A stretch of 62,916 bases of DNA, the filler included, from Patellaria atrata CBS 101060 (lineage: Eukaryota), in the NCBI GenBank assembly GCA_010093705.1. It is 7 parts of 6 records of this genome, joined end to end, with 100 filler letters (N's around TTAATTAATTAA, not from the genome) between each part and the next. Parts side by side here need not be neighbours in the genome. Positions count along the whole stretch, not along the records: positions 1 to 18,266 come from MU006132.1; 6 more parts are not named here. The stretch is one strand, 5' to 3'. Shown piece after piece: positions 3,848-51,045 of this stretch. The notes below the pieces were generated by a model. That model saw nothing but the letters and a program-made list of their open reading frames with translations. It did no database searches and was not told where the DNA came from. The position numbers and the translations under genes were made by a program. Every line of letters starts with the position of its first letter. Within the stretch, counting starts at the first letter, position 1.

Positions 3848-4430
3848 TATTATAACGGAAGTCTATACTTATTAAGATAGAACTAGATAAGTCTAGAAAC
3901 GCGCTTAGCTTCTCACTTAACGTGGTTAACTATAAAGATAAGTTCGGTAAAGTGATAGGATACGTATAATAAAGGCACTTTAAGTTATCGATATAACTTA
4001 CTAACTCCTTAACTTTAGGTACTACTTATAATAAGATAAGACGTACTATATAGAAATAGTGTAATAAGTGAAGTTAAGTTTAAAACCGTAATATCCAAAT
4101 CTATAGGTAAGATTAATAGTAAGAATAACTACAAAGAATCTAAATATATAAGGGAAAGACCGTTCTTAAATATTCCTATCCTCTATAGTTAATTTAGTTA
4201 CCTATTCTCTAGTCGTTCTAGTCATTAGTCGTTCTCTACGACTAGCGCGACTAGCAACCACTATCTAGTCGTTTTAGTCGTTAGTCGTTCTCTACGACTA
4301 GCACGACCAGCGACTAACGTCTAGGTCACGTGATTCTCTATCACTCGTTTCACCCGTAGTTCTCCCGAGTGGTGTTCCTTCCTTCCCCTCACTCGTTATC
4401 TATATATTCCTATAACTTATAGCCGTAATA
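3848..4430 (-). repeat. Family B 3' LTR (583 bp)
   Basis: Near-identical to 10622-11194 and 11295-11691; adjacent polypurine tract AAGAAGGAGGAGGATAG on the minus strand. Confidence 0.92.
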
Positions 4431-4545
4431 CTATCCTCCTCCTTCTTAACTCTTATCCTAAGAGTTTATTTCTTTTGCTTAGGTATATAATAGACGTGTC
4501 GCCTATCTATTAAGTCGTACGCACCTCTCTTTCCTTTCTTTCGAG

Positions 4546-5094
4546 ATGCTAAAAGCTAAACCCCGTCCAGTCCGCCGCCGACGTTACGCTACCCGTATTA
4601 CTCTACACGGTCGTCCTATACCGACTCCCTATTCCGCTTATCGTCGTTTCTCTCGTTCTTATATTGTCGATATTCCTTCTAGTTTCTATTCTAAGTGTCT
4701 CGCTCGTGGTTCAAAATGCGATCTTATAGTGATATAAAAGGATTAAGATAAGCTCGATGCTTTAAAGGCTCGTACTCGCTCCGAGCTAGCTACTACTAAG
4801 GACGAGCAAGAATCCCTTTAGGCTCGTGTACGTCGCCTCCGTAAATAACTTCGTTCCCTTAAAGAGAAGGAATTTAAGATATCTCGTTATAAGCTTAGTT
4901 CTATCGAGGAACTTAAGGCTTTAGAGCGAGCAGCCGAAGGGCAGCGAGCTTCCTCGGTCGTTCCTCCTTCCTCCGCTATCGTGTCTCCCTCTAGTTAGTC
5001 TAGTTTGGATTTCTCTACCCTCGAGGGTCTAGAATTCCCTAGTTTTGGCGATAAAACTATTTAAGTTTCTAATCGTAGTTCGTTAAGTGCTTAA
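4546..5094 (+). pseudogene. Antisense accessory ORF of gypsy B: Zn2Cys6-like cluster + coiled coil (RIP-mutated)
   Basis: Four TAT codons plus TGT and TGC give C-x2-C-x6-C-x8-C-x2-C-x6-C on reversing TpA to TpG. The frame continues through RIP-type stops into a charged heptad-like region. 3' end uncertain. Confidence 0.7.
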
Positions 5095-8000
5095 GTGGTT
5101 CCCACGTGTTATCTACGTGTTCGTAGCCTTTCCATTTTACTAAATACTTATACTAACTATTTACTCGTTATAGGTCTAAGATTCGTTCTACCTCGTAGAT
5201 ATCTTCTTCCTCGAGTTCTATAGGTCGTGTTTAGAGTTTAGCATTAGTAGGTGCTAGTTCTAGGAGTGATATATGGAAAACTAGGTGTATCTTCATTCCT
5301 TATAGTAATTCTAACTTATAATTGACTTTTTCTTTAACCTATTTAATTCTAAAGGGGCCGATTTTCTTATAGTCTAGTTTCTTGTTAGGTCGTTTTATTT
5401 TAAGGTTTTTCTATAATAAGTAAACTTTATCCCCCCTTTTAAAGGTCGGTTCTAGCGACCTATACTAATTACTATACTTCGTAGCCCTTATCGTCTAGAA
5501 AGCTATATCTTGTGATAGTTATACGTGTAATTCCTTAATTTGCTCTACTTTTAACGTTACTTCTTATAAAATGCTCTGAACTATTCTCGGCTCACGATAT
5601 ACTTCCGGTTTAAAACCATAGTTCGTATAGAAGGGTGAAACCTTCGTGGTATCGGATTTCGCGCTATTATATACGAATTATACTATTAGTAGTAGCTCTA
5701 CCCAGTTATTCTACTAGTAATTTATATAATTACGTAAGTATTACTCTAGAGATTGATTTATTCTCTTAGTTTAGCTATCCGTTTATAGGTGAAAGCTCGT
5801 TAATAGCTTATAGTTTACCTTTAGACCTTATACTAGAGTTTACTAAAACGCTAATTTAAACAGTTTATCTCTATCTAAGATAATCTCTCTCGGTATCTAG
5901 TAATTTACTAGCACTATCCTTATCACTAATACTACTACTTATAGTGCTATTATTATTATCTTTACTAGTATAAAGTAGGTGAACTTTATTAGTCGTTCTA
6001 CGATAACTAATATCGCGTTATACTCTACTCTTATTACTAGATCTTTAGATCCTAGTAGACCTATAATAAAGTCTATCGTTATTGAGTCCTATGCTCGCTT
6101 TAGTGGCTTAATATATTATATCTATCTATAAGGTATATATTTTACACTTTTATTCCGTGCGTAGTTATTACACTTTAAGATAACTTTCTTCACTATACTT
6201 CTTACCCCTAGAAAGTAGTAGTTCCTTAGGATCCTTTCTAAGGTTTTGTCAATACCTTAGTGACTATATACTAGTGCTTTATAGATCTCTTTAGTAAGAG
6301 TCTTTCGTAGTATTATTAGCATATATACGAGCCCGTCGTATAGCTATATTCCTTAAGCTATTTATATTGCTCTAGAGTCGCTACCCTTTCGGAACTCCTC
6401 TATTATACTATCCTTCTAATAGGTATTATGAATTTATTATTCTCTCGTGGATTCGATTATTAGCATTATAGCTAATTTTAGCTAATTATAGGTGATCGCA
6501 TCGTTTTCTTTCCTTAGTACCGTGTTATATACCGGTTTTATTCCTTCTAGGTAGTCGGATCTTCTATTTATAGTATTAGCTAGTTTATTTTCGACTCCTA
6601 GTCTATAGAATATTTTAAAGTTAAAAGATACGAGTGTTTCTATCTATCTTACTTATCTTCGATTTAACTTCTTTATTATAAGGAAGTTTATTAGGTTTTG
6701 ATAGTCTAACTAAACTTTTATAGTGAACTTAGGTCCTTTAAGGTATAACCTCCACTATTTAAATGCGTCGACGATTACTAATAACTCTTTATCGTGTACG
6801 TCGTAATTTAGCTCTACGGCCGTGAATTTCCGTGAATAAAAGGCTACTAGGTGTAGTCGTCCTTTCTTATCTAGCTAATTTATATATACACCTAGTGTAT
6901 AATTAGATGCGTTAGTCTCTAGCACTATCGGTTTCTCTAAGTTAAATATAACTAAGATAGATACTATAGTGAACTTCTTCTTAAGTTCGTCGAATACTTC
7001 CTAGACCTTCTCTATCTAAATAAAGGTATTTTCCTTCTTTATTAACTCTAATAGCGGCGTTATTACCTTCGAGTACCCCTAGATAAACTTTCTATAGTAG
7101 TTCGCGAAACCTAGGAACGATTATACGTCCTTTATATTCTTCGGCGTCGGCTAATCTTAGATTATAGCTATCTTTTTTAGGTCTACTCGTATACCTTTAG
7201 TGGTAATGATAAAGCCTAGAAATTCCGTTTCTTTAATATAGAATTCACATTTATCTAGGTGTACTAAGAGTCTCTTTTCTCGTAGTTTCGTTAATACTTT
7301 CTTTATATACTCCCTATACTCTTCGAGTGTTCCGTTCGTATATACTAGTATATTATCTAGGTAAATAGTTATAAATACGTCTAAATACTCTCTTAATACG
7401 TGATTAATCACTACTTAGAACGTTACTAGGGCGTTAGTTAAGCTAAACGGTATTACTATATATTCGTATAGTCCGAACCTCGTTCTTATAGCTATCTTCC
7501 ATTCTTCGCCTTCTTTCATTCTAATTCGATAGTAACCGTCTTAGATATCGAATTTCGTAAGCTATTTTACTCCTTATAACCTATCCTAGATTTCTAAGAT
7601 TAAGGGTAATAGGTATCTATTCTTAACCGTAGTATTATTTAGCTATCTATAGTCGATATATAATCTTAGCTTACCATTCTTCTTTAGTATAAATAGAATC
7701 GGTGAAGCTATCGGGCTTTCACTAGATCGTATATATCCCTTTTCTAAGTTGGTGCGGATATATTCTTCGAGTGCTTTATATTACTCTCTCGTTAACGGGT
7801 AAATTGGACCGGGTCGTAGTTTCGCACCCTCCTTTAGCACTATCTTATAATCCCACGTCTAGTGATCCGGAAGTATAGTCGCTATATCTTCCTCAAATAA
7901 ATCTTTAAACTCGCTATACTCTTTAGGTATCTTAGGTTCTTTAGAAACCTTCTTAGCGTCTATTTTCCTAAGCTATACTACTCCTACGCTCTTAGGTTTA

Positions 8001-8540
8001 TTTCTATAGATCTATATTATCTTATAGTGCGAAATACGTTCTATAGATATACTAGTATCCGTCTACTTAGTACGTCCTATTCGCTTAACTCTATTCTTTC
8101 GTAAGGTGTCTTAGTTAATCTAGATACTTCTCGTCTTCTAGTTAATATCTAGGTTCACTATTTATAACTAGTCTATCCCTAGAATTATATCTATATCTTC
8201 TAGGTCGGTTATAGAGATACGCTAAGTAGTTACCTTCCCTTATACGTTAACTTCTACTAGTATAGTCCTAAAGTTAATTAGACCTCGTCTATATTCTATT
8301 TCTTCGCCATTTCCTAGTCGTAACGGGACTGGATTTTCAAGTTTCGTGTAAGGTATACTCTTCTTTTCTACCTATCGGGGTGAGATAAACGAATCGGTGG
8401 CGCCGCTATTAACTAGCGCTGTCGTTCTTTTACCGTGTATAGTAATATCTACCTAAAGCGTCTTATCGTTACTTCGTAGGGTTTTAAGGAACTTAGGAGC
8501 TATACTTCTCGATCGTTCCTATCTCGAGTGGCTTAGTAGT
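5012..8540 (-). pseudogene. pol of gypsy B (PR-RT-RH-IN-chromodomain)
   Basis: Domain motifs in Ty3/gypsy order; many TAA/TAG stops. End coordinate approximate. Confidence 0.88.
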
Positions 8541-10590
8541 TTTTTACGTAGCCATGTACTAGGTAACCGGATTCCACGTACACGGTCTAGTGTAGTCTAT
8601 CGTGTCGGTCGTAATATGGACCTTTACGATGTTCCTCGCATTCCAATTCTCGACATTCTCGTTTAATAACTACGTTATAACTTAGGTTACTTTTAATTCC
8701 TACTCTCTATCTTTACGCGGTATAGTAATCGTATTATATCCCTTTAATAGCGTATTATCTAAAGTCTATCGCGTTATATCTAGTAGCTTACTCGATAGTT
8801 TCTCTTTCGTCTTTAAGCGCTTCTATTTCCTATAGGAACATTTTTCCTTTATAGAACTCTTCTTCTAATCCTCTATAGTACTAGTAATCTATACTATATT
8901 TATAATCTACCCATATTACTATTATATATTCTACGTGGATTAGCGCCTAGTAATATCGTCTACACCTAAGTTTATCTATATAATTGAAACTATCGTACTT
9001 CCTATAGTCGCCTACTAATGGTTCGAGTTCTTAATTCTTCTCAGTTTTTCTTGTTTCATCTTCGTGGATTTTACATCCTTTCACCTGGCATTCGCCTTTA
9101 GGTAAGTGTATATAAGTAGGGTCTCGATCCCTAAACTTCGCTATAGCCTTCTACTATTTATAGTATAAGTAGTTATCCTCTTTATATTATATCTATCGAA
9201 AGGCTAAATAGTCTTCTACCCTCGGTGTAAGGTTCAATTATTATTCTTCGACGATCGCGTCGGCACTAGATTCGGGTTCGATCGGTTCCTAATCTCGGAA
9301 CTCTTATTCGAGCCGTTATTATTATTCCATAATCCGGTACGTGAGGCCTAGTCTATTAGATATTTATACTTTAATTCTCTAACCTTGATTTTATGCTAGG
9401 CATTCTAATACTATATATATATATATATTTCCACACGCCTAATATTATTAGTTATCTAAACGTTATCGGAGTATCTCCTCCTCTAGCTAGTTTCCTATTA
9501 TTAGGAACGGCGTTAGTGGCCTACTCACCCCCGTCTAGTATAGTAGCGGTATTTCCTTAATCTCTTCTTCTTCAAGCGATAAGACTAGTGATAGTGGTGT
9601 TAGGTGTATAACTCTAAGTTATATACGTCGGTTATATCGCGAGGATAATTACGTCTTCTATAGGTAGTCTCTCTTAAAATGTCCCACTTCTCCGTATTAT
9701 AGATATACTCTATTCGTAAAGCGCTCTTTTTCTTCTTAGATAAACTATCGTTATTTCTTTAACTTCTTTTATTTTGTTTATTATAGTCGGTCGAGATCTA
9801 TCGGGTCTCTTTAATCTTGTCTATTCGTGGCCCTTATTACCTTCTTTCTATATCTAACTATAATATTCTTCCGTCCTCCCTTTTCCTATCTACGCTTATA
9901 TAACCTATTATCTATTCTAACTACTAAGGTCACTACGTCCTATATTATTATTAGTCTCTTATAATGAACCCACTCGTCCTTTACTTCTTCCTTTAAACCT
10001 TAATAGAAAGCGATTATTAGTGGTTTATTAGGCTAACCTAATATTAATACTACCTACTAGAATATAGTCGTATACTTCGAAGCTAACCCTTTTTACCTAA
10101 GTCTTTAAAGCTTTCTTTCTACTACTTATTATTCGTCGACTTCCCTAAAGACGTTCTTTAGCGTTTCTTCGAACTTTGGAAACGACTTAAAGATCTTAAC
10201 TATTTCGTCTTCCTAGTGTTCTTCACTATTCTTAAGATAGTCTCGTGTAATGGGTTCGAACCATTCTAAAGCGTCTCCTTTAAGGTACGCTAATATATCG
10301 AGTACACGTTCACTATCGTCCGTTAGCCCTATTCTTTTATAATAAATCCTCACCTAGGTTAAGAATCCTCTCAGCTCGTCTCGTTTACCATCGTATAGTG
10401 CGGGTTCTTTAACTTTCGCGGTTCGCTTTTATAGTGAAAGCAACTATACGATAAGTTGTTCGAGCTAATCCCTAAGTTCTTAGACTATTCCCTTATTCTC
10501 GAGTTTAGTGATATGTTTATATAACGCTTAGATATATTCTTTATCCGTCTTCGTGTTAGCTACGGCTGACGATATCGTGTCTAGGTCTAT
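8533..10590 (-). pseudogene. gag of gypsy B (long, with repeated C-x4-C-x2-H motifs)
   Basis: KVKEPALYDGKRDELRGFLT..YLKGDALEWFEP; ends A AAA AAC TAC TAA at 8545-8533. Start approximate. Confidence 0.8.
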
Positions 10591-10621
10591 TATACGCTTT
10601 CCTACTACGTGATAGTTATAA

Positions 10622-11691
10622 TATTATAATAGGAGTCTATACTTATTAAGATAGAACTAGATAAGTCTAGAAACGCGCCTAGCTTCTCACTTAACGTGGT
10701 TAACTATAAAGGTAGGTTCAGTAAAGTGATAGGATATATATAATAAAGGCACTTTAAGTTATCGATATAACTTACTAACTCCTTAACTTCAGGTACTACT
10801 TATAATGAGATAAGACGTACTATATAGAAATAGTGTAATAAGTGAAGTTAAGTTTAAAACCGTAATATCCAAATCTATAGGTAAGATTAATAGTAAGAAT
10901 AACTACGAAGAATCTAAATATATAAGGGAAAGACTATCCTTAAATATTCCTATCCTCTATAGTTAATTTAGTTACCTATTCTCTAGTCGTTCTAGTTATT
11001 AGTCGTTCTCTACGACTAGCGCGACTAGCGACCACTATCTAGTCGTTTTAGTCGTTAGTCGTTCTCTACGACTAGCACGACTAGCGACTAACGTCTAGGT
11101 CACGTGATTCTCTATCACTCGTTTCACCCGTAGTTCTCCCGAGTGGTGTTCCTTCCTTCCCCTCACTCGTTATCTATATATTCCTATAACTTATNNNNNN
11201 NNNNNNNNNNNNNNNNNNNNNNNNNNNNNNNNNNNNNNNNNNNNNNNNNNNNNNNNNNNNNNNNNNNNNNNNNNNNNNNNNNNNNNNNNNNNNNAGATAA
11301 GACGTACTATATAGAAATAGTGTAATAAGTGAAGTTAAGTTTAAAACCGTAATATCCAAATCTATAGGTAAGATTAATAGTAAGAATAACTACGAAGAAT
11401 CTAAATATATAAGGGAAAGACTATCCTTAAATATTCCTATCCTCTATAGTTAATTTAGTTACCTATTCTCTAGTCGTTCTAGTCATTAGTCGTTCTCTAC
11501 GACTAGCGCGACTAGCAACCACTATCTAGTCGTTTTAGTCGTTAGTCGTTCTCTACGACTAGCACGACCAGCGACTAACGTCTAGGTCACGTGATTCTCT
11601 ATCACTCGTTTCACCCGTAGTTCTCCCGAGTGGTGTTCCTTCCTTCCCCTCACTCGTTATCTATATATTCCTATAACTTATGGCCGTAATA
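10622..11691 (-). repeat. Family B 5' LTR, partly duplicated across a 100-N gap
   Basis: 11295 onward repeats the sequence from ~10808; true LTR length about 583 bp. Confidence 0.85.
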
Positions 11692-12494: not shown

Positions 12495-13515
12495 GAGAGG
12501 AAATTTAACTATTCGCGAAATATATCTATAATATTATTAAATAGGCGAGAAATAATCTAAAAAAAGTATAAATAATATAGATAAAATTAGCTAATAAGTA
12601 TTAAAGAGAATTAAACTTTAGATTAAAAGACTATATTTTTATTTTATATAAAGACTAAATATTAAATAGATTAAGTATTAAACTAGACTATTAAAATATA
12701 GATTTATATAAAATAATAAAAATAAAGAGGTATTTTTATATAATTAACTTATCCACTAATATAAAGATATCGAATATATTCTATATAAATAGGCTTTATA
12801 AAATATCGATAGATCTATTACTTAGATAATAGCTAAAACTACTACTATTAATCGAAATAAATAGCGAGCCTAAATATAAAGTAGATAAGATTCTAGTAAG
12901 CCGTATCTTTTATAATAAGTTATAATATAAAGTAAGTTAGATTAAATACGACTTTAATAAAATATAATATTTAGCTTATAACTTTATTAAAATATTATAT
13001 AAACTTAAAGAATTTTATAATTAAAGACTAGTTAATACTAAACTATTAGTTCGATTTAAAGAATAGCTTTAAGCCTTTAAATCTAAAATAGAAGTAAAGC
13101 TATATAATAATAATAATATAATTAAAAAGAAAGGGCTTATATAGATTTTAAAATATTATAAATAGATAATAAATCGTGTTATAAAATATTATTAATATTA
13201 TTATAGAAATCGGGGCCGATTTCTACTATTAAAGAAAAGATAATATAATAATATATTATAATATTAATTCTATATTTTCTATATTAAATGTTTAATTTAT
13301 TTATAAGAAATTTTTACTAGATTAGATATAGAAAAGATCTCTAAGTATTAATTAATTAAATAAAAAATAGTTAAGTTAAAATTTAGTAAGATAGGACTAT
13401 TATATATAAATATTTAGCCTATAATATTATTATTTCTTAACTTAATCTTTATACTTAGTAGTTAGTAATAAAAATAGTTAAAATATAATTATTATAGCTA
13501 TACTATATTATTATA
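12495..13515 (+). mobile_element. Family A copy A3: integrase end, chromodomain, 3' LTR
   Basis: Matches 3635-3847 joined directly to 11697-12494 (empty B site); more heavily RIP-mutated; LTR 13244-13515. Confidence 0.85.
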
Positions 13516-13592
13516 ATATTATTAATTATAATTAATATAAAAATAAATAAAAAATAAATTTAAATATAATATAAATATATTAATATATTTAT

Positions 13593-13850
13593 TATAATAA
13601 TATATTATAATATTAATTTTATATTTTTTATATTAAATATTTAATTTATTTATAAAAGATTTTTATTAAATTAAATATAAAAAAGATCTTTAAATATTAA
13701 TTAATTAAATAATAAATAATTAAATTAAAATTTAATAAAATAAAATTATTATATATAAATATTTAGTTTATAATATTATTATTTTTTAACTTAATTTTTA
13801 TACTTAATAATTAATAATAGAGATAATTAAAATATAATTACTATAATTAT
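13593..13850 (+). repeat. Family A LTR, truncated by copy A4
   Basis: AT-converted match to the family A LTR. Confidence 0.7.
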
Positions 13851-16800
13851 TATAATAATATAATATAGCTATAATAATTATATTTTAACTATCTTTATTA
13901 CTAACTACTAAATATAGAGATTAAGTTAAAGAATAATAATATTATAGGTCGAATATTTATATATAATAGTTCCGTCTTATTAAACCTCGGCCTAATTATT
14001 TTCTATTTAATTAATTAGCGTTTAAAGATCTTTTTTATATTTAATTTAATAAAGATCTTTTATAAATAAATTAAATACTTAGTATAGAAAATATAGAATT
14101 AATATTATAATATATTATTATATTATCCCTTTTTTAATAATAGAAATTAATCTTAATTTCTATAATAATATTAATAGCGTTTTATAATATAATTTATTAT
14201 CTATTTACGATATTTTAAAATCTATATAGATCCTTTCTTTTTAACTATATTATTATCGTTATATAGCTTTACTTTTATCTTAGATTTAAAGACTTAAAGC
14301 TATTCTTTAAGTTAAACTAGTAGTCTAATATTAATTAATCTTTAATCGTGGAATTCTTTAAATTTATATAATACTCTAATAAAGTTATAAGCTAAATATT
14401 ATATTTTATTAAAGTTATATTTAATCTAACTTACTTTATACTATAATTTACCGCGAGAGATATAGTTTACTAGAATTTTATCTACTTTATATTTAGGCTT
14501 ATTATTTATTTTAATCGGCGGTGATAATTCTAGTTATTATTTAGGTAATAAATCTATTAGTACTTTATAAAGTCTATTTATATAGAATATATTTAATATC
14601 TTTATATTAATAGATAAATCGATTATATAAGAGTATCTCTTTATTTTTATTATTTTATATAAACTTATATTTTAATAGTCTAATTTAATACTTAATCTAT
14701 TTAATATTTAATCTTTATATAAGATAAAGATATAGTCTTCTAGTCTAAAGTTTAATTCTCTTTAATATTTATTAGTTAATTTTATCTATATTATCTATAT
14801 CTTTTCTAGATTATTCCTCGCCTATTTAATAGTATTATAGATATATTTCGTAAATAGTTAAACTTCCTCTCTATTTATCTTTTCTTAAACTATTTTATAT
14901 ATATCGAGATTTATCCACTCTTACTAATCGAAATATATTTATAGTTAATAACTAAATTCTAACTCGTAAAGGAAAATATCTATCGATTTATAGACTAACG
15001 TAGCCTAAATAAAATTTATTATAAATAATAGCTTTAATTAATTACTTTAATAATAATTTATAAAGAGCTAAAACTATAAATTTATATACTAGTTAATAAT
15101 CTTTATATTTCTATTTATCTATAAATAGTAAATTATAGATAGCTTCTATTTTATTTTTATTAGTTTATAAAGTTTATTTATAAATATAAAAATAAACTAT
15201 AGACTATAATTTAATATCGTTATCTTTAGTATATTATATATTTATTATATATATTTATAGTATAGCTTTATAGCTATCTTAGCTAAGATATCTTTAATAT
15301 AAAAGAGTAAAATTACTCTCTTTTCTAGTTAATCTATTATTATAAATGTTATTTTAAATCTATATATATTTTTAGGGAATAATTTAAAGTTAAAGATAAT
15401 ATATTACTAATATTTATCTCTAATTAATAGTGATTTTAGTAAATCGGGGGTTTTATCTCTTAGTATATATATCTAATAATAGATATAATAGTTTTAAATA
15501 TATTTATTTATATTAGCTATTAATTTAGACTAATAATATTATATTTAAATTAATTCTTTTATCTTCTTAATTCCTAGATATTCTATAATTAATACGTTAT
15601 ACACGTCTTATATTAGATATATTCTAAGATTATTTATATTTAAAATTATAAGTCTATTAAATTTAATAAGTAAACTATCTTATAATTTCTAATATCTCTT
15701 TTTAATTTTAACTTACTTTTAATATATTAATAAAGAGTTATATTTCTAGTTTACTTCTAATATTTAATCTATTAATAAGTATATTACTAGCGGCTTTTAT
15801 TTTCAATTAAATTTATTTTAAATATATTATTTTAAATTTATAGATATATCTTCTCTTTTTTTTATTTTATACTTAACTTTCTTTTCTTTTTTAGTTATAA
15901 TAGAAATTATAAAATAAATAAATATAAACTTTAATTTAAAATTAAAGTTAATATATTTCTTTAATATATTATTTCTCTCTTTTAAGATTTTAATTATTAT
16001 AGACTTTTAGTTTTAAACTTTAGCTTCCTTTATCTCTTATAAAGACTTAGCTATTATTATCTCGACTATCACTATCTCGATTATCGTTATCTAAGTCCTA
16101 AATCTTAATTTTAAAGTATACTTTTCTATTATCTTCTTTTTAAAGATTATATATTTCTTATTACTTTAAAATATCTTTTTAAATAGTAATTATTATTTTA
16201 TTAAGAGTTAAAAAAATATTATTATTATATTTAAGTTAATTAATATCTAAATTTATATTATAATATCTTTATCTTTTATTATTTTTAAGTCTTTTTATTT
16301 ATAAAAAAATATATTTATTATAATATTTTAAGCTCTAAGTTAATATATAATTTAGAAGTAAAAATTAAAAAAAGTTTTATTTTATTAAACTTATTTAATA
16401 TTAAATAACTATTTTATAATAAAGTATTTTAATACTTTATAGTTAATAATTATAATAAAGAGAATTTATTATAATTTTACTAATATACTTTTTTATTTAA
16501 TTAATACTTTTATTATAATTAATATTTTTTTATTATAAATTTTATATTTTAATTTTATCTTTAATAATATCTTAATTTAAAAGATAATTAGCTTTTAAAT
16601 ATATTTATAAAACTATAATATAATTATTATAATAACTTTATTATTATAGTTAAATTCGATTTTTATCTTAAATAAAAAGTTATAATATATTAATATTTAA
16701 TTTAATAAAATTAACTTTTTTATTTTCTTAAATATCTTTTTTTCTTTTTATTTAAATAGTTTTTAAATATCTTTTTATATTAATATTATTAATAATTATA

Positions 16801-18266
16801 TAATTTATCTAAATTTCTTTAAAAACTTTTAATAAAAATTATAAAATTTATTAAATAATAAAATTCTTTTTATATTTATTAATAATTTTTAATTTTAGAT
16901 TATTTTAATCTTTTTTAAATTTATTACTATTTTATTAATATTAATAATAAAGTTAAAAAACTTTATTTTTATTATATAAAATTTACTTTTTTTAATATTA
17001 ATTTATAAATTAATTTTAATTAATATTTTTAATATTTTCGTAATATAAATTTAATATTTTAATAAATATTTAAAATAAATTAGTATATTAATAATATATA
17101 TTATATAAAAGTTATTTAAATATTAAAAGAATATTTTATTAATAAACTATTAAAATAAAATTAAATTATTATATAATTTAAAAGATAATATTTTATATTT
17201 AAATAATTTATATTTTATTTAAAAGATAATAAGATTTTTAATTAATTTCTTTATTTAAATTTAATAGAATATTTATTTTATATTAAATTTTATAAATATC
17301 TTTATTTATTAAAGATATATTAATATTTCTTTAATTAAAAATAATAAATATTTATTTTTTTTAATAATATTATTTAACTTTTTATAATTAATATAGAATT
17401 TTTAATTTCTCTTTAATTTTTTAATAAATAATATTAGAAATATATATAATATTTTACTTAAAATAATAAACTTTTTTTTAAAGATATTTCTTTAAATAAT
17501 TCTTTATTAACTATAAATATTTAATAAATATATTATATAAAAAATTAATAGTAAAATTATTATTTTAATTTAATATTATATTATAATTAATATTTTCTCT
17601 AAATAATAATAATTTATTAAATATAGATTTTAAGAATATATAAATTAAATAATAATATTTCTTAAATAATTTTTTATAAATTATTATTTTATAAATATTT
17701 TTATCTTTATTTAAAGGATTTTTATTTTTTAAAAATTAATTTTATATTAAAAAGTTAATTTTATATAAATTTATAATATTTATAATAATATTTTTATATT
17801 TTATATTTTTTAAATAATTTTCTTTATTAATTAAATAGATATTTATATAAATTTTAATAATATTAATCTATTTATTTAATTTTAATTTTAATTTTTTAAA
17901 GAATTTTAATATTTTTTTCTTTATTAAATTTAATAATTCTAATTTTATCTTTTAAAAATTAAAATTAATATTTTTAATTTATAAATTTAATTATTTTTAT
18001 TAAAATAATTATAATTTTCTTTTTTAATTAATTAATATTTTCTATTAATTATATTTTTATTTATTAATAATTTTATCTTATTATTTTATATTAAATTAAT
18101 ATTATAAATTAGTTTAAATTTATAGCTTATTTTTTAAAATTATAATATTTTATTATTAATCTTTAATTATAATAATTTATTTTAATTAAATAATTTAATA
18201 ATATTTATAATTAAATAAATTATTAATTTTAAAGAATTATTTTTTATTTATAAATATATTATTATA
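13851..18266 (-). mobile_element. Family A copy A4 (3' LTR, PPT, pol), heavily RIP-mutated, ends at contig break
   Basis: LTR 13851-14122, PPT complement TTATCCCTTTTT from 14123; reverse complement of the A2 pol sequence. Confidence 0.85.
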
Positions 18267-18366
18267 NNNNNNNNNNNNNNNNNNNNNNNNNNNNNNNNNN
18301 NNNNNNNNNNTTAATTAATTAANNNNNNNNNNNNNNNNNNNNNNNNNNNNNNNNNNNNNNNNNNNN
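18267..18366. other. Artificial contig linker N44-TTAATTAATTAA-N44 (12-mer also at 20233, 36387, 50990, 57972, 59908)
   Basis: Identical 12-mer with stops in all six frames, centred in N runs. Confidence 0.97.
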
Positions 18367-18631
18367 ATATAATATAATTATAATAATTATATTTTAACTA
18401 TCTTTATTATTAACTATTAAATATAAAAATTAAATTAAAAAATAATAATATTATAAATTAAATATTTATATATAATAATTTTATTTTATTAAATTTTAAT
18501 TTAATTATCTTTTATTTAATTAATTAATATTTAAAGATTTTTTTTATATTTAATTTAATAAAAATTTTTTATAAATAAATTAAATATTTAATATAGAAAA
18601 TATAAAATTAATATTATAATATATTATTATA
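18367..18631 (-). repeat. Family A LTR relic
   Basis: Aligns by eye to 13851-14122. Confidence 0.75.
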
Positions 18632-19205
18632 ATTATACTATATTATTATATTTATAAATAAAAAAATAATTAAAAAAAATAAAAAATAATTTTAAAATTT
18701 ATTAATATAAATTATAAATTATAAATTAATAATATATATAAATAAAAATATAATTTTTTATTTTAATATATTTTTTAAATTTAATTATATAATTAAATTT
18801 TAAAAAAATAATTATATTTAATTAAATTTTTTTTTATAAATTTATATATTATATTTAATTTTTATATATTTTTTAAAATAATATAAATATAATAATTTAT
18901 TTTATTAAATTCTTTTTATTTAACTTTTTAATTAATTATTATTTAATAATTTTTTTTTAAATAATTAATTTTTATATATTAAATATATTTATTAAAAGTA
19001 ATATATTATTAAAAATAATAAAATTTTTTAAAATTATTATTAAATAAAAAATTTATAAAATTTATATTTATATTAAATTTAAAAGATTTTTTTAAATTTT
19101 TTTATATATTTAAATATTATATTTAATTTTTTTATAATTTTTATAATATTATAAAATTAATTAAATTATTTTATAATTATTATTATTTTAAATTTTCTTT
19201 AATTA

Positions 19206-20188
19206 ATATAATTTATAAATAAATAATATATATAAATAATTAATATATTTTTCTATTTTATTATAATTTTTAAACTTAATTATATAATTATAATTTAATA
19301 AAATTAATTATATTTAATTAAACTTTTTTTTTTAAATATTTCTTTATCTTTTTAATAAATTCTTATATTATATTTAATTTTTCTATATTTTTTATAATAT
19401 TATAAATATAATAATTCTTTTTTTATTAAATTTCTTTTCTTTAATTTTCTATTTAATTATTATTTAATAATCTTTTTTTAAATAATTAATTTTAATATAT
19501 TTTATATATTAAATATTTCTTTTATTTATATATATATTTTTTTAATTTATTATTATTTTATAAATATTTTATTAATTTTTTAAAATATTTAAATTTTATT
19601 ATATATAAATATTATTTTATAAATAATAAACTTTATACTTTTTATTAATTATTTAATAATTAAGAAAATAATATTTAAAGAATTTTTTTAATATTAAATT
19701 ATTTAATTCTTAATATATTTAAATTATAAAATAGTTTTTTTTAAAATTATTTAATATTTAAAAAATCTTTAAATTAATAATAAAAAAAAGAAATTTAATT
19801 AATATTAATATTTATAATTTTATATTAAATTTTAAAATAATAATTTAAAAGTTATAAAAAATTAAATTAATATTAAAAAAGTTTATTTAAATATTTTTAA
19901 TTATTATAATATTAATATAAATATCTTTAAATATAATAAAGAATTTAATTTTAATAATATAATTAATATAAATTTTAATAAAAACTTTAAAATCTTAATT
20001 ATATATTTATTTTAATATATTAAAATATTTAATATTTAAAAATTAAATAAAGTATAAAAAATATATAAATAAATAAATAATAATAATATTCTTTTTTTTT
20101 ATAAAATTCTTTAAATTAAATTAATAAATAATTTATATAATTATTAAAAATAATTATCTAATAAATATTTTTCTATTAAATATTTATA
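19206..20188 (-). mobile_element. pogo/Fot1-like DNA transposon, partial, RIP relic
   Basis: Same TIR and body as 53225-55085; cut by a contig break. Confidence 0.75.
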
Positions 20189-20288
20189 NNNNNNNNNNNN
20201 NNNNNNNNNNNNNNNNNNNNNNNNNNNNNNNNTTAATTAATTAANNNNNNNNNNNNNNNNNNNNNNNNNNNNNNNNNNNNNNNNNNNN

Positions 20289-23200
20289 ATAAATTTATTA
20301 AATTTAATAAATAAATTATTTTATAATTTTTAATATCTTTTTTTAACTTTAATTTATTTTTAATATATTAATAAAAAGTTATATTTCTAATTTACTTTAA
20401 ATATTTAATTTATTAATAAATATATTAATAATAATTTTTATTTTTAATTAAATTTATTTTAAATATATTATTTTAAATTTATAAATATATTTTCTTTTTC
20501 TTTTATTTTATATTTAACTTTCTTTTCTTTTTTAATTATAATAAAAATTATAAAATAAATAAATAAAATTAAAATTAATATATTTTTTTAATATATTATT
20601 TTTTTTTTAAAATTTTAATTATTATAAGCTTTTAATTTTAAGTTTTAATTCTCTTTATTTTTTATAAAAATTTAATTATTATTATTTAAATTATTATTAT
20701 TTAAATTTTAAAATATCTTTTTAAATAATAATTATTATTTTATTAAAAATTAAAGAAATATTAATATTATATTTAAATTAATTAATATTTAAATTTATAT
20801 TATAATATTTTTATTTTTTATTATTTTTAAATTTTCTTATTTATTAAAAAATATATTTATTATAATATTTTAAGCTTTAAATTAATATATAATTTAAAAA
20901 TAAAAATTAAAAAAAATTTTATTTTATTAAATTTATTTAATATTAAATAATTATTTTATAATAAAATATTTTAATACTTTATAATTAATAATTATAATAA
21001 AGAAAATTTATTATTATTTTATTAATATACTTTTTTATTTAATTAATACTTTTATTATAATTAATATTTCTTTATTATAAATTTTATATTTTAATTTTAT
21101 TTTTAATAATATTTTAATTTAAAAAATAATTAATTTTTAAATATATTTATAAAATTATAATATTATTATTATAATAATTTTATTATTATAATTAAATTTA
21201 ATTTTTATCTTAAATAAAAAATTATAATATATTAATATTTAATTTAATAAAATTAATTTTTTTATTTTTTTTAATATTTTTTTTTCTTTTTATTTAAATA
21301 ATTTTTAAATCTCTTTTTATATTTATATTATTAATAATTATATAATTTATTTAAATTTCTTTAAAAACTTTTAATAAAAGTTATAAAATCTATTAAATAA
21401 TAAAATTTCTTTTATATTTATTAATAACTTTTAATTTTAAATTATTTTAGTTTTTTTAAATTTATTATTATTCTATTAATATTAATAATAAAGTTAAAAA
21501 ATTTTATCTTTATTATATAAAACTCGTTTTTTTTAATATTAATTTATAGATTAATTTTAATTAATACTTTTAATATTTTTATAATATAGATTTAATACTT
21601 TAATAAATATTTAAAATAAATTAATATATTATTAATATATATTATATAGAAATTATTTAAATATTAAAAAAATGTTTTATTTATAAATTATTAAAATAAG
21701 ATTAAATTATTATATAATTTAAAAGATAATATTTTATATTTAAATAATTTATATTTTATTTAAAAGATAATAAGATTTTTAATTAACTTTTTTATTTAAA
21801 TTTAATAAAATATTTATTTTATATTAAATTTTATAAATATTTTTATTTATTAAAAATATATTAATATTTCTTTAATTAAAAGTAATAAATATTTATCTTT
21901 TTTAATAATATTATTTAACTTTTTATAATTAATATAAAATTTTTAATTTTCTTTTAATTTTTTAATAAATAATATTAAAAATATATATAATATTTTATTT
22001 AAAATAATAAATTTCTTTTAAAAATATTTCTTTAAATAATTTTTTATTAACTATAAATATTTAATAAATATATTATATAAAAAATTAATAATAAAATTAT
22101 TATTTTAATTTAATATTATATTATAATTTATATTTTCTTTAAATAATAATAATTTATTAAATATAGATTTTAAAAATATATAAATTAAATAATAATATTT
22201 TTTTAATAATTTTTTATAAATTATTATTTTATAAATATTTTTATTTTTATTTAAAGAATTTTCGTTTTTTAAAAGTTAATTTTATATAAATTTATAATAT
22301 TTATAATAATATTTTTATATTTTATATTTTTTAGATAATTTTCTTTATTAATTAAATAAATATTTATATAAATTTTAATAATATTAATCTATTTATTTAA
22401 CTTTAATTTTAATTTTTTAAAAAGTTTTAATATCTCTTTTTTTATTAAATTTAATAATTTTAATTTTATCTTTTAAAAATTAAAGTTAATATTTTTAATC
22501 TATAAATTTAATTATTTTTATTAAAATAATTATAATTTTCTTTTTTAATTAATTAATATTTTCTATTAATTATATTTTTATTTATTAATAATTTTAATTT
22601 ATTATTTTATATTAAATTAATATTATAGATTAATTATTTTCTTTAATTTATATTTAAAAATTATAATATTTTATTATTTATTTTTTTTTATTAATATTTT
22701 TAATAATTAAAAGATAAATTTATATTAATAATTTAATAAATTTTTTATCTTTAAAAATTATTTTTAATTAATTAATAAATTATTATTATTTATATTTATT
22801 ATTAATATTAATATATATTATTAATAATCTTTAAATATAATATTTATTTTAAATATCTCTTTTATTAATATTATTATAATATTATTAAAAGTTATAATAT
22901 TAATATATTATTTTATTTTTCTTATTTTAATTTTAAGATATTATTTAAGAATTAAAAGTTACTTTTTATATAATAAAGTATATTTTTAAACTTTAATATT
23001 AATTAATATTTTTAATTAAATTATAATATTATTATTTAAGATTTAATATAATATTATAAATAATATTTTATTAATTAATTTATTAATTATTATTTTTATT
23101 ATTTTTATTATTAATTTTAATATAAAATATTTATTTAAAATTTATTATTTTTTAACTTTTAATTATTATTTAATATAATAATTAATTTAATTTTATTTTT

Positions 23201-25061
23201 TTAAATTACTTTAAATTTAATAATCTTTTTTAATAATTTATAATTTATTTTTTAATAATTTATTTTATTATAATTAAAATATTTTTTTATAAATTTATAT
23301 ATTATTATTATTTTAATTTACTAAATTATTATAAATATATTTAACTTAAATATTATTATTATAATAATTTTTAAAATAATAATAATATTATTATTATTTT
23401 AATTTTAATATTTATTTTTAATTAAATTTTAATATTTTTTTATTTTTTTATTTTTTTTCTTTAAATTATAAACTATTATTATTATTATTTAATAATATTT
23501 TTTAAAGTTAATATAATTATTTATATATTTTTATATTATTTTATCTTTTAAATTAATATAAAATTTCTTATAAATTTTATCTTTTTATTAATTTTATAAT
23601 ATTTTAATTTTAATAATAAGTTAAATAAATTTTAATTAAATTTTTATAAAATTCTTTAAATATTCTTATTTTAATTTTCTTAAATTATCTTTTATCTTTA
23701 TATATTTATTTAAATCTTTATAAATATTATTTAAATATTTTAATATATTTTATAATAAAATATATTTATTATTTTTATATTTTATTTTTAAATAAAAATA
23801 TATATAATTAATTATTTATTTTATAAAATAAATTTTTATATATATTATTTTAACTTTATTATTTAAAAATTAATTATTATTAATTTTAAATTAATTTTCT
23901 AATTATTTTTTTTATTAATTATATATAAAATTTTTATTATTAATTAATATAAATAAATTAAAATATTTTTTTAACTTTTTATTATTTTTACTTTTAAAGA
24001 TATTTATAATATAATTTAAATCTTTAATATTATTTTATTTATTTTATTATTATTTTAATATATTATTATTTATATTCTTTATAAAATAAATATTTTAATT
24101 ATATATCTTTTTAAATAACTTTTTTAATTCTTTATTCTTTATTTTTAAATAATTAATAATTATTTTATTATTTAAATATATATTTATTTTTAATATTATA
24201 TTATTATATAATCTATTTATTATTATTAAAGTTTTATAGATTTAATTAATTTATATTCTTAATTATAATTAATTTTTAAAATATTTTTTTAAAAATTTTT
24301 ATAATTTTTTTTTATTTATTAAATAATTTTCTTAATTATATTTATTAATTAATAAGATATAATAAATACTTTTAAATTAAATTATAATCTTATTTTAATA
24401 ATATAATATAATTTTAATAAATTTATAAAAAAGTTTTTTTCTATATTATTTTAATTAAAAGAATTTTCTATTTTTTTAATTTTTAATAATTATTTATTCT
24501 TTAAACTTTTTTTTTTATTATTTTTTTAATAATTATTAATTATTTTTAAATAATTATTTATAATATTTACTTTTAATTTATTATTAAAATTATTATTAAT
24601 ATAAATAATTTTATTAATTATTAATTATTATTATTTAAAATAATAATCTTTTTTTATTAATTAATAAAATTTAATAATTTAATAATTTTAATTAATTTAA
24701 TAATTATTTATTTATAAGATTAATATTATATTTTAATTAAAATATTTTATTATTTTTTTAAAAAATTATAAAAAATAAACTTAATTTAATATAATAATAT
24801 AATATAATTATAATAAATATATTTTAATTATTTTTATTATTAATTATTAAATATAAAAATTAAATTAAAAAATAATAATATTATAAATTAAATATTTATA
24901 TATAATAATTTTATTTTATTAAATTTTAATTTAATTATTTTTTATTTAATTAATTAATATTTAAAGATTATTTTTATATTTAATTTAATAAAGATCTTTT
25001 ATAAATAAATTAAATATTTAATATAAAAAATATAGAATTAATATTATAATATATTATTATA
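20289..25061 (-). mobile_element. Family A copy A5 (RNase H-RT-PR-gag-5' LTR), near-total RIP
   Basis: 20289-22630 parallels 15650-18110; the right part parallels 1-1563; LTR 24790-25061. Confidence 0.78.
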
Positions 25062-26399
25062 ATTAAATTTTTAATTAAAAAGTTAAAAGAAATTTTAATT
25101 AATAATATTTAAAATAATAATAAATTTTTTTATTATATTTTTAAATATATTAAATCTTTTATATTAAATAATAAGATTTTTAAAAATATTATTTTATTTA
25201 AATAAATATAAATTTATAATAAATAATATTTAAAGAATTTAAAAATTATAAAAATAAATTAAAGAAAAAAAAAATATTATATATTTAATTAAAAGATTAT
25301 AAAATTATTAATAAAATAAATAAAAATTTATATTTTATTATATATTATATTTTAATATTAAAAATAATTTTATATATAAATTAATTTATAAATATCTAAA
25401 TTTAATAAAATATTAAAAATTATTTTAATTATTTTAAAATAATTAAATTATTAATAAATATTTTAAATAAATTTATTAAATAAATAATAATAATAATATT
25501 ATTAAAAATAATATTTTTAAAATAAATAAATTACTATTATTATTATTATTATATATAAAAATAATTAATAAATTTATATTAAATATTTTTAAATTATTAT
25601 TAATTAAATAATTTATTTATAATTATATTATTTTTTATTAAATTAAAAATTTATATTTTATAAAGTTTTTAATTTATTTTAATAATAATATATTTTTTAT
25701 TATATTAAAATAAAAGATTTTAAAAAAATAAATAATATATAAATTTATTATTTAATAATAAATTCTAAAATATAAACTTTAAATATTATTAAATTATTAT
25801 ATAATAATAGTAATAATTAAATATTATATTAATAATAAAAATTATTATTATATTAAAATATTTACTTTTTAAAAATTAAAAGATAAATATTTTAATAAAA
25901 ATTAAATTTAATTAATATTTAATATTTTTCGAGATTATAAAATAGAAAAAAAGATTAAATATTTTATTTTTAATAATATAAGATTTAATAATATTTATAT
26001 TAATTTTATTTTATAGACTTTTTATCCAATAATAATAAAGATAAAAAGAAAAAGATATTAATTATATTATCTAGACTATATTATTAATCTTTATATTTAG
26101 GTTTTTTTACTAGATAAAGCTTTAAATAAAACTTTAGAGACTCTAAATTTAACTTATTCGTAATAAGATTTAAATAGCGATAACGCTATCTAGAGATATT
26201 ATAGAGCGGTTGGAAGACTTTATAATATCGTCCACTATATTCGCCTGACACCTTAGCGTCGTCAGGAGTTTAAAAAGATCAAAATAAGTGGTGAGTTGAT
26301 AAAATACGACGATCTTGAGGTAAGTCAAAATTATCAGGTTCAAGATCCCGAAAATACTAAGTTTCCTTAGCTTCAACTAACGTCATTTTGTATTTCAGC

Positions 26400-26987: not shown

Positions 26988-29900
26988 GTGTTACCATCAG
27001 GTGGAGAAACGCCACAGCATATCCAAGACTGGGTGACGACCGGGAAGACTCCAGACGGAGAGACGAGCCAGACGATGGCACTGTTCTACAACGCCCATAG
27101 AGCTATCGCAAAGGAGCAAGACCAGAAGAGAGCTAAGATAGCCAATCTATTCACGTTGATTATTAATACAGTGCCTGTAGACAACTTACCCCTAAGTGAG
27201 GACACTAAGGAACCCTACTCGTTACTTAAAAAGCTGAAAGATCGCTTTCAGCTTAATGATTAGACGGTAAGAGAAGAGGCTTACAACAAATATAAGCATC
27301 ATCTCTGTACGGCCAAAAAGACGAATATAGACAGCTGGTGTACGACCTTTTTGAATCTCTACGATAGATGCGTGTTATATAAAGTAACTGAGCTTAGTGG
27401 AGAGCAGCTAATTAGAGATGTACTGAGCTGTATCTCTAAAGCTTATCCACAGTGGGCAATGTCGAAAACCGTGAGTGTGGATGAAAAGCGATTCGCTGGT
27501 CTTCAAGTCGAGGTTTCCGATATAATCTCCCATTTCCGGAACTTCCATAGAGCACAAGTCCTCAAAGAACCAACCGGAAGTGTTTTGGCTACCTTTCAAG
27601 GCCAGTCTACCACGGAAACCAACACCCAAACGTCAGTTTCGTCGGACAAGAAGTCATCCAAACCGGACACCGTGAGGATTTGCCTATGCGGAAAGGAACA
27701 CCTCTGGTCTCAGTGCTAGTATATTAACACTAAGGTCTCCAAATCGAAAGACTACTCGGAAGCAACGCAATAGATGGTTGACACGAAGATTCCGGAGCTA
27801 ACACCGTTCGGACAGACGGTTATTCGACGTATCAAAGCCAAAGCTGGCAAATCCGACAAAAACGATAAAAGCGACAAAAGCGACTCCAAGCAAGGGGACG
27901 TTATTGCGTTCGTTGGAGGAATCGCCTTAAGGCCGGTTGGATCCGTTCTATCAACTCTCGATTTGGAGAGTAATAACTGGCTCTATGACTCCGTTCTTTT
28001 GGATTCTGGATCTAGCCTTCATATTTGCAACGATCCAGCTCAGTTTACTATCGAAAGTTACTGCACGGAACAGTGGATTCAGGTTGGAAAGGGAACATGC
28101 CAACTCTTGGCAAAAGGTAGGTGGACTGTGGAAGTGGAAGGTCCTGTAGGAAAACGGAATCTCCACCTAACAGAAGCTTATCTCTATCCGGATTTCAACG
28201 CCTCTATCGTCGGCTTAAAGCTGATAAAGAAGAAGCGTGGCATCTACTGGAACCACCGAAGCGATTATCTTGAATTCAGCGATGGCACCGAGATGTGCAA
28301 AGTCCTGGAAAAAGGCAATCACTATCTGCTGAACTATAAAGAAGTCAGCAAACCCACCGGATCTGTTTTCGCGGCTTACAAGTCCACGGATCCGAGACCC
28401 CCAATCAGTGCTACAACGAGACGTTGGCACCGAATCATGGGCCATGCTGGTCCAGAAGCAATTCAGCATTTAACAACCGGAGTGGTTAGAGCTGAAATAG
28501 ATAGCCGAGCGCCATCTACTATTGGGTGTGAAGTCTATGCTGTCTCAAAAGCAACTGAATTGGTAAGCAGACGACCACGCGGGCTGGAGAATCCAGCAAC
28601 ACGTATCTTCCAAAGAGTGTCCTTTGACATCATCTCTTTCCCTCCTGGCTACAACGGCCATCGATATCTCGGACACTACCGAGATATCTACTCCTCCTAG
28701 ATTGATCTAGAAACGTCAGTAACAAAGCCAGCTGCGAATATAAGTAATAGAAAGTACTTTAAACGGACGGAAACTCAATTCGGAGAGAAGGTTCAGACAT
28801 TCCATAGTGACAACGAAACGTCCTTCGGAAAAACGCATCAACAACTGTTAGACGAGACCGGAACGGTTGCAGAGCCTTCAGCTCCAGATACACCGGGCCA
28901 AAACGGTGGTGCTGAACGCTCTGGAAGGGTGATACTAACCAAAGCACGCACGTTGGCGATAGATGCTATGATTCCGTGGGAGTTGTGGCCAGAAGTGTTG
29001 AAGTATGGGTCCCCTGTTAGACTGAAGATCTTGGTGGAAAGGATAATCAAGTATATCTCCTACTGCCTTACGCTAGTTATTAGCATCATTCCTTTAACAC
29101 AGCTGCCTAGTAGGTATCAACACTGTTGCCTGCATGTTCTCAGTTGCCTAGTAGGTATAAACGCTGTTACCTACATGTTCTCATGTATTTAAACGCTCTT
29201 TAGAACAGTTATTAAACAATCGAGCGATTATCTTGATCATTTTCAGCACCCTTACGTCTGACAAGAAGTGGTGGCAGCAGTGACTTATATAAGCAATCGG
29301 ACTCCCCATAAAGCTCTCAACTGGAAGACTCCTTTTGAAGTTGTGACCGGACGGAAGCCAGATATCAGTCACCTCAAAACGTACGGCTGCAGGGCATACG
29401 TACTCGACAAGCATATTCCACATTTACAGAAGCTCCAGCCAAGAGCTCTGATTGGTTACCTTGTTGGATACGACTCTACAAATATTTACAGAATCTGGGT
29501 TCCCAGCAGGAAACGGGTGTTCCGCTCCAGAGACGTCAAATTCGACGAAGATCGGTTCTATGATACAGCAGAGCTGGATTTCGGTCATTTACTGCGTGAG
29601 AGAGCTGATGAGGTGATCGTTATGCTTGAAGTTCCCCCTATAATCACTACAATTGAAGAAGTTGACGAACCAGTGCTCCTTGAAGATATCGTGGACGCTG
29701 AGGCGACTCAAGTTTGCAATTTGAAGCAGACGACGCAAACAGCAGTTGGCAAGGCCAAAGATGGAAGGGTGGACCAGTCCGGGACATTTCCTACCCCCCC
29801 TCCAGACACACCTCCAACATCGGACTCACCGTCAAATTCGCATGTTTTAACACCAACTTCAACACCTCCACTCTCAGCACAACCACAGCAACCAGATAGA

Positions 29901-31913: not shown

Positions 31914-31982
31914 GTGTATAGAACGGACTTTGCAGCTACTGAATAGCTTCAAAAAACTCACTCTTCAGCAGCTGGAAGGGTG

Positions 31983-32252
31983 TGTTAGATGGTGAGGTTC
32001 GCTACCGGGTAAATGGATGCTTACTAGTTCAAAACAGTGGTGAAAACAATGGTATGGAACGGTAGCTTGAGACAGAGCGTCAAACCGTATTAAAACAGAT
32101 CTCTGACGAGAGCACGGATCTGTGGTGTTTTATCTGTTCTCTTTCTGACCCAGTATCATTGTCAACTGTTCAGTATATAGTCCATATCTCTCTCAGTAGT
32201 TGCAAAAAAAAGCGACATATTCCATGCACCTGCAGATCCAGTTTATCTCACA
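31983..32252 (+). repeat. copia-1 3' LTR
   Basis: Direct repeat of the 5' LTR, followed by TSD TCAGC. Confidence 0.95.
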
Positions 32253-32256
32253 TCAG

Positions 32257-34440: not shown

Positions 34441-34610
34441 TATGAGCGCGCCCTGCATCCGAAGATCAGCCAGTAATATTTTCCTCAAACCTGCCTTCAG
34501 ACTCTTCTCTTCTTCTTTATCTTGATTGTAGATAGCATCTGGACTAGATAGTTGGAACACAATTACTAGAGGCCGCTCACATACAATCAAGATCATTCAA
34601 GTTACTAAGG

Positions 34611-50945: not shown

Positions 50946-51045
50946 NNNNNNNNNNNNNNNNNNNNNNNNNNNNNNNNNNNNNNNNNNNNTTAATTAATTA
51001 ANNNNNNNNNNNNNNNNNNNNNNNNNNNNNNNNNNNNNNNNNNNN

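Follow-up and report, generated by a model that had tools for sequence, protein, structure and literature searches.

A conserved antisense gene with a predicted Zn2Cys6-like fold between pol and the 3' LTR of ascomycete chromoviruses

The closest described gene is brtn of Boty, a chromodomain-containing gypsy element of Botrytis, which is an antisense ORF lying between the 3' LTR and pol; the accessible text of the papers that cite it gives its function as unknown and names no domain for Brtn (PMC7264820, PMC4227169, PMC8365987). Like brtn, the gene described here is an additional antisense reading frame that a fungal chromovirus carries in the interval from pol to the 3' LTR, and it is likened to brtn by this layout. 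The family described here has a Zn2Cys6-like cluster. The brtn gene is reportedly spliced. Antisense ORFs of plant elements (Grande gene23, Retand TRP28 and RIRE2) likewise lie between pol and the 3' LTR, have their own promoter and encode nuclear or predicted DNA-binding proteins, and a regulatory role has been proposed for them, without proof in the accessible portions of the sources (PMC7264820, PMC11963269). However, these elements belong to non-chromovirus lineages, and Pfam scans of the antisense family found neither TRP28 nor another shared domain.

Two other systems offer functional analogies. Foamy-virus Tas, which according to the accessible part of the source activates both the LTR and an internal promoter, is also the product of an accessory gene that has its own promoter and lies close to the 3' LTR, and its loop is the same as the one that we propose below by analogy (PMC8003144). 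Tas is retroviral, however, its gene is in sense orientation, and no link in sequence or fold to the antisense family was found. The HBZ gene of HTLV-1 is comparable to the Tas gene in its position and in having a promoter of its own. VANC of Arabidopsis VANDAL elements is an element-encoded, sequence-specific protein with shown anti-silencing activity, and its tandem-repeat targets differ between related elements (PMC5735166, as far as its accessible text goes). This likeness is one of functional analogy only; VANDALs are DNA transposons and the protein is unrelated. In the literature searched by title and start of abstract, with most subscription papers outside coverage, no Zn2Cys6 gene in fungal LTR elements or Helitrons was found, and the accessible parts of PMC3248453 and PMC10799480 contained nothing relevant on such genes.

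The antisense gene and its host element

The DNA analyzed, hereafter the window, is a stretch of 62,916 nt from Patellaria atrata CBS 101060. It contains an LTR retrotransposon, element B (Table 1), whose pol domains are in the order protease, RT, RNase H, integrase and chromodomain. LTRs, gag, the PR-RT-RH-IN order and a C-terminal chromodomain, which together characterize chromoviruses, were found when the window element, genomic copy L019 and the foreign relative L034 were considered, and the chromodomain of L019 matched the Pfam Chromo family with an E-value of 2e-14. The two LTRs are 96.6% identical over 581 nt, and the 5-bp flanks TTTAT and TCTAT form a target-site duplication save for one C>T change. 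In the region 11195-11691, a 100-N gap (11195-11294) divides the 5' LTR from a repeated LTR piece of ~400 nt that is 99% identical to it; this piece is probably an assembly artefact and not a third LTR.

Table 1. Features of element B and of its antisense gene (window coordinates).
Feature	Position	Strand	Remark
Element B, Ty3/gypsy chromovirus, RIP-mutated, nested in another repeat	3848..11691	-	Based on LTRs and motif order
3' LTR of element B, 583 nt	3848..4430	-	
LTR array, two 56-nt units, each with three forward and then three reverse hexamer half-sites	4210..4324	.	Candidate binding sites
TCACGTGA palindrome	4326..4333	.	Similar distance from ATG in L017, L019, L020, L021 and foreign L032
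Polypurine tract of element B	4431..4446	-	Based on sequence adjoining the LTR edge
TATATAA, a TATA-like box that precedes the antisense ATG by 62 nt and is not part of the LTR	4484..4490	+	Putative promoter role
Antisense accessory gene, 182 codons and stop, dead copy	4546..5094	+	Stop codon 5092-5094
N-terminal basic helix, residues 7-21, family motif RRxxLAxxI	4564..4608	+	
C-x2-C-x6-C-x8-C-x2-C-x6-C cluster	4630..4719	+	
Long helix/coiled coil, residues 64-127	4735..4926	+	Hosts in-frame subfamily insertions of +21, +54 and +87 nt
Acidic tail rich in Ser/Pro/Gly, with aromatic residues	4948..5091	+	
pol chromodomain	about 5045..5197	-	Final codons run into the 3' end of the antisense gene
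gag and pol (protease, RT, RNase H, integrase), with numerous RIP stops	5198..10590 (bounds approximate)	-	
5' LTR of element B, split by assembly gap	10621..11691	-	

The antisense gene is located between the chromodomain and the 3' LTR in the orientation opposite to gag-pol, and 115 nt separate its ATG at 4546 from the inner edge of this LTR. An initial annotation had read the frame from this ATG as a hidden Zn2Cys6-like gene in which RIP had converted four of six cysteine codons, and our analysis agreed with that reading: Tyr codons TAT are found at 4630, 4639, 4660 and 4687, followed by TGT at 4696 and TGC at 4717, these six codons have the spacing x2-x6-x8-x2-x6, and both the basic patch RPVRRRR and the stretch ARVRRLRK*LRSLKEKE..SIEEL are in the same frame. 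The relaxed C/Y motif occurs a single time in the six frames of the 7.8-kb element and is not due to chance.

Compared with an open copy of the gene (L002), the window sequence has 52 differences over 552 bases; 51 of these are G>A or C>T, and 47 are RIP-type changes in CpA context. At six codons (64, 67, 92, 101, 151 and 173) the window copy has premature stops where L002 reads CAA, CAG or TGG. The window copy is therefore dead, and the later analysis rests on natural copies. With four of its Cys codons changed to TAT, it does not itself show the six-Cys pattern, and no Pfam family was matched by it.

Other parts of the window were also inspected. The regions 13000-26000 and 51000-60000 include blocks whose G+C content is 2-17%, with inverted repeat copies nested in them and extreme RIP products. 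A heavily mutated segment at 57253-57920, inside an A+T-rich block, is 72% identical to 5128-5795 (integrase end and chromodomain). The G+C-rich region 27774-35765 has several long open frames, of which we take 29622-31913 to resemble a copia-type RT/RNase H and 32224-33348 a transposase. A 1.1-kb inverted repeat (39542-40642/43868-44968, 99% complementary) encloses a 339-codon ORF at 42421-43440, and several pairs of 44-N runs occur within the window.

Natural copies, relatives and conservation of the frame

A search of the P. atrata genome yielded 55 matches. Thirty loci were read, five duplicates and two loci without the motif were dropped, and 23 distinct copies remained. The less-mutated copies carry Cys rather than Tyr, and the complete pattern C-x2-C-x6-C-x5-12-C-x2-C-x6-8-C (PF00172) is present in 9 of the 23. 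At the six cysteine places, all 138 codons in these copies are either TGY or TAY, consistent with the proposed erasure of cysteines by RIP. Open frames of 182-198 aa were found in four copies (L002, L004, L017 and L019), net indels were divisible by three in 22 of 23 copies, and insertions lengthened the coil by 7 to 29 residues across copies. The gene was linked to a pol chromodomain in four of six foreign loci and in 23 of 23 own-genome copies, the latter being partly built in because the query DNA included the chromodomain.

The antisense frame was conserved across copies and relatives and was found to be under purifying selection. For all six pairs, dN/dS values, computed on the first 72 codons of natural copies (L017 being lightly mutated by inspection), were 0.04-0.05 within protein type A and 0.19-0.24 when type A was compared with type B (see below). 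In addition, codon position 3 was the least conserved in 10 of 10 pairs formed by five genes from different sources. The two findings that the initial annotation had named as counter-evidence, Tyr in less-mutated copies and a frame that is not conserved among relatives, were both looked for and not seen. It is almost certain, therefore, that this is a real conserved antisense gene borne by the element. The extra antisense gene is the third gene of an ascomycete chromovirus lineage, located between pol and the 3' LTR.

A profile search detected 790 protein clusters at E<=0.001 and 257 at 1e-10. When 151 of these proteins were examined with a slightly wider pattern, 131 had the six Cys; the spacing 2-6-8-2-6 was present in 89, and six residues separated the second and third Cys in 118 members. 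The family occurs in several ascomycete classes. Names were looked up for 30 clusters, most of which had none, and named members came from Patellaria, Zopfia, Aaosphaeria, Aureobasidium, Lasallia, Circinaria and Watsoniomyces; no Botrytis or Sclerotinia was among the named matches, most matches being nameless. The initial annotation had also supposed that the gene is missed by databases, and this was not the case: NCBI/UniRef contain near-identical intact proteins, which are named there as hypothetical and 'Zn(2)-C6 fungal-type'. Because several members carry this label, the domain is known to annotation, and it is the element origin that is unrecorded.

In a metagenome scan, 8 of 407 candidate stretches passed. 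Two (L037 and L038) were discarded as their translation lacked the six-Cys pattern, and six were kept as foreign loci. In L031, L032, L034 and L036 a chromodomain lies directly behind the gene on the opposite strand, and in L034 it belongs to a 1557-codon gag-pol frame with capsid, protease, RT, RNase H, integrase zinc-binding and chromo domains. The L033 sequence terminates within the gene. The 16-kb locus L035 contains no pol; instead, a Helitron Rep-helicase is located 1.1 kb downstream on the same strand. A scan of IMG/VR gave 94 pattern matches, none of which was confirmed.

Introns on the same strand as the gene were found in L034 (163 nt, with two alternative acceptors) and L035 (173 nt). 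Both interrupt the same codon, that of a conserved Trp after the cluster, and a frame break at this place was also seen in L033 and L036. Since the splice signals are on the strand of the gene, transcription would proceed in the antisense direction. Together, the introns in relatives and the TATA-like box make antisense transcription from the 3' end, as first suggested from the window alone, more likely.

The predicted protein

The product is predicted to be a minimal Gal4-fold protein consisting of a basic helix, a six-Cys putative zinc cluster, a long coiled coil and an acidic tail. When natural copies were searched against Pfam Zn_clus, L019 passed the cut-off of 21 with 21.7 bits, and L004 (20.1), L002 (20.0) and L017 (14.1) scored below it; among 84 family members, 11 matched at E<=0.01. 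A predicted model (pLDDT 96) comprised a helix at residues 7-21, the cluster and a helix at 64-127. The best eleven Foldseek rows were all Zn2Cys6 regulators, at weak E-values of 0.15 or worse. The predicted cluster superposed on 33 residues of Hap1 at 1.2 A and on 32 of Lac9 at 1.5 A (Z ~3), and Z was at most 3.3 for the Zn2Cys6 rows in the structural comparison. Folding of the cluster alone as a single sequence was poor (pLDDT 56), and phmmer found no match of the cluster in the PDB. Profile searches against the PDB returned mostly coiled-coil noise together with Lac9, Leu3 and Put3 at E-values of 0.027-0.44.

With Zn(II)2Cys6 regulators (Gal4, Put3, Hap1, Ppr1, Leu3 and Lac9; PF00172) the family shares the six-Cys spacing and, by prediction, would also share the cluster fold, a coiled coil following the cluster and the formation of a homodimer. 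In contrast to these regulators, the proteins have a median length of 184 aa (longest 388, among 151 relatives) and no middle homology region, they have an extra basic helix before the cluster and a 64-residue helix that is predicted to pair in antiparallel fashion, and they are element-borne. PF04082, the middle homology region, was not matched by the family members scanned with Pfam, and 11 long members matched no Pfam family at E<=0.001.

The residues with which Gal4 reads bases are also mostly missing. In Gal4, K17 and K18 read CGG and the loop proline is conserved, according to the accessible text of PMC4245848. Lys was found at the place of K18 in 15 of 118 family members, and Gly replaced the loop Pro in 79 of 118; the alignment with Lac9 agreed that the base-reading lysines and the loop proline are missing from the cluster. 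Because of this, CGG sites would not be expected to be read in the usual way. As judged from sequence, the family is Zn2Cys6-like by pattern, yet it differs from Gal4-type CGG readers at K17/K18 and at the loop Pro.

A homodimer was predicted with a score of 0.57 (best control 0.00), a contact agreement between runs of at least 86% and a pLDDT of at least 78. In calibration sets from microbes, 21 of 30 solved pairs and none of 23 single chains attained this mark; among eukaryotes, 17 of 29 pairs did so but only one of seven pairs that had no older solved relative. The score possibly results from similarity to coils of solved structure. The predicted dimer is antiparallel (contacts 77-105, 81-98 and 91-91), whereas Gal4-type dimers are parallel. 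The last 50 residues contain on average 16% D/E and 3% K/R in 121 members, and Trp in 79% of them, a composition that resembles that of activation domains.

LTR arrays and possible functions of the protein

The half-sites of the LTR array read TGGTCG/CGACCA in less-mutated copies. The neighboring TCACGTGA palindrome is probably a site for a host factor. TATA-like words occur at the place that matches the antisense box in other copies and in L032 and L035; because this box stands outside the LTR, only the 3' LTR adjoins it. A TATTTAA is found on the sense strand of the element at 4172, on the side of the array opposite TCACGTGA. As this word and the antisense box flank the array, the latter would lie between two divergent TATA-like boxes.

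Hexamer arrays were located 190-370 nt upstream of the ATG and varied with protein type (TGGTCG, TGGACG, TGATCG and TGATTR). With 22 RIP-proof sites as markers, the 23 genomic copies fall cleanly into two protein types, A and B. Sites of the GGTCG type were present in 12 of 12 readable type-A copies (in one of them only in RIP-degraded form) and in none of six type-B copies, the array being unreadable in four type-A copies and in L004. Four of the 12 readable type-A copies (L005, L006, L021 and L028) have mixed arrays that include type-B-like sites, and their codons 1-65 are of type A. A comparison of L019 (type A) with L017 (type B) gave 14 transversions per 100 nt within the array but 2 and 1 across the adjoining 200 nt; the values were 13 and 11 for codons 1-66, 9 and 22 for the coil, and 0-7 in other parts. 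Between type-A copies they were 1-3 in the array and codons 1-66 and 5-12 in the coil.

Among foreign loci, L034 has a TGATCG array and L035 a TGATTR array at the same distance from the gene, beyond shuffled controls (P<=0.003), with the shared hexamer pattern having been defined post hoc, after the motifs were known. In L035, dense arrays occur only before the family gene and before the Helitron Rep-helicase. Within L035:7640-16201, the spliced homologue and the Rep-helicase (Helitron_like_N, DUF6570, PIF1) are each preceded by the same 18-nt repeat array, and blocks at 9158-9487 resemble sequence behind the helicase; this locus, a single contig, may consist of a non-autonomous and an autonomous Helitron in tandem that share a 5' end.

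The geometry of the arrays differs by subfamily. Copies without coil insertion have three forward and three reverse sites offset by 29 nt. Most longer-coil copies, including the +54/+87 copies L005, L006, L021 and L028, have four and four sites at ~38-40 nt, and type B has three and three at 38 nt. The idea that coil length sets the array spacing was rejected as there was no clean rule: L019 (+54) has 29 nt and type B (+21) has 38 nt.

The co-variation of arrays and protein types makes binding of the protein to the LTR repeats, which the initial annotation had suggested, more likely. It should be noted, however, that the A/B co-variation is one evolutionary event and, because array and gene are 200 nt apart, could be explained by shared descent or a single recombination. 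In addition, LTRs commonly contain short repeats, which may be sites for host factors. On balance, we consider it rather probable that the protein acts by binding the LTR arrays.

The most likely mechanism would combine these features. The antisense gene would be transcribed from a TATA box of its own, next to the 3' LTR, and the protein would dimerize through the coiled coil. The dimer might then bind TG(G/A)(A/T)(C/T)G-type half-sites in the U3 array by a surface unlike that of Gal4, and the acidic tail would activate the sense promoter in the 5' LTR as well as the gene's own promoter. The outcome would be a positive feedback loop that is specific to each family and whose protein and sites change jointly. 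We give an even chance to such an element-encoded, sequence-specific activator that drives its own promoter and the 5' LTR. The wider proposal, that ascomycete chromoviruses encode a Gal4-fold transactivator that uses a non-canonical surface to read family-specific hexamer arrays in their LTRs and evolves jointly with these arrays in a lock-and-key relation, and that this gene-plus-sites module moved into Helitrons, is made more tentatively and appears somewhat less probable than that.

The same DNA binding could have another outcome, with the protein as a repressor or copy-number brake, for which HBZ is a model, or as a VANC-like anti-silencing factor that frees the LTR of methylation. The co-variation suits any sequence-specific binder, RIP is strong in this host, and VANC itself targets tandem repeats that vary between related elements (PMC5735166, accessible text). 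However, the acidic aromatic tail resembles an activation region, and Pfam, PDB and fold searches found no similarity to VANC or bZIP proteins; we regard these outcomes as unlikely.

The gene could also be a captured piece of a host transcription factor with a role apart from element DNA, such as modulation of host genes or a dominant-negative partnership with Zn2Cys6 proteins, and the arrays would then serve host factors. The predicted Gal4-like fold together with the loss of canonical base-reading residues agrees with this, and the conserved TCACGTGA by the array hints at host factors. On the other hand, no host-gene homologue was found in the genome, where 35 of 36 matches were at element copies or in stop-ridden frames (the remaining match, on C3 with an E-value of 0.002, was rejected as an unrelated long coiled-coil protein). 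Similarly, no longer forms were present among 8000 candidates of 444-2000 aa, which is weak evidence, and divergence peaks jointly in the array and the N-terminus. Such a capture is thus quite improbable.

A structural role in replication, in which an antiparallel dimer bridges the two LTRs of the cDNA or the LTR and its target, or the basic helix imports the pre-integration complex, is in our view also quite improbable. The predicted antiparallel coil would place the clusters at opposite ends, the coil tolerates 7 to 29 additional residues, the N-terminus is basic, and nuclear import is among the roles proposed for plant antisense ORFs in the accessible text of PMC7264820. Against this, the L035 homologue has the same intron and lies beside a Helitron in a 16-kb locus without pol and hence without a cDNA stage, and the acidic tail would be left unexplained.

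Finally, the frame might be no more than a shadow cast by a longer pol C-terminus, or an ORF present by chance. In L002, L019, L020 and L021 the pol frame is stop-free across the antisense gene, with 0 stops against 3.9-7.6 expected in L002 and L019, but its dN/dS was 1.87-4.75, or synonymous change was zero, compared with 0.04-0.24 for the antisense frame, pol ends 67-73 codons past the chromodomain core in L032 and L034, introns occur on the antisense strand and six Cys are near-invariant in ~150 relatives, so that this explanation is extremely improbable, the pol shadow being ruled out by the six-Cys conservation, dN/dS and the third-position pattern. In the same four copies the pol frame (window 5045 to ~4280, minus strand) is open past the chromodomain and the polypurine tract into the 3' LTR; the amino acids of this read-through are not conserved, and the foreign loci L032 and L034 have no read-through. 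A possible reason for the stop-free read-through is selection against a long 3' UTR.

Antisense ORFs in LTR retrotransposons have long been known without a function, as far as the accessible text of PMC7264820 and PMC11963269 goes, and one family of them now has a recognizable predicted fold and a candidate target. Types A and B amount to a natural swap experiment, in which the N-terminus and the LTR hexamer differ within otherwise near-identical elements. Some short 'Zn(2)-C6' proteins that are counted as host transcription factors of fungi are transposon genes. If the element-encoded activator is real, retrotransposons would have an equivalent of foamy-virus Tas, and it could supply small orthogonal activator/site pairs. 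Many fungal chromoviruses would then control their own transcription in the manner of complex retroviruses, which would bear on the timing of their bursts relative to RIP and silencing.
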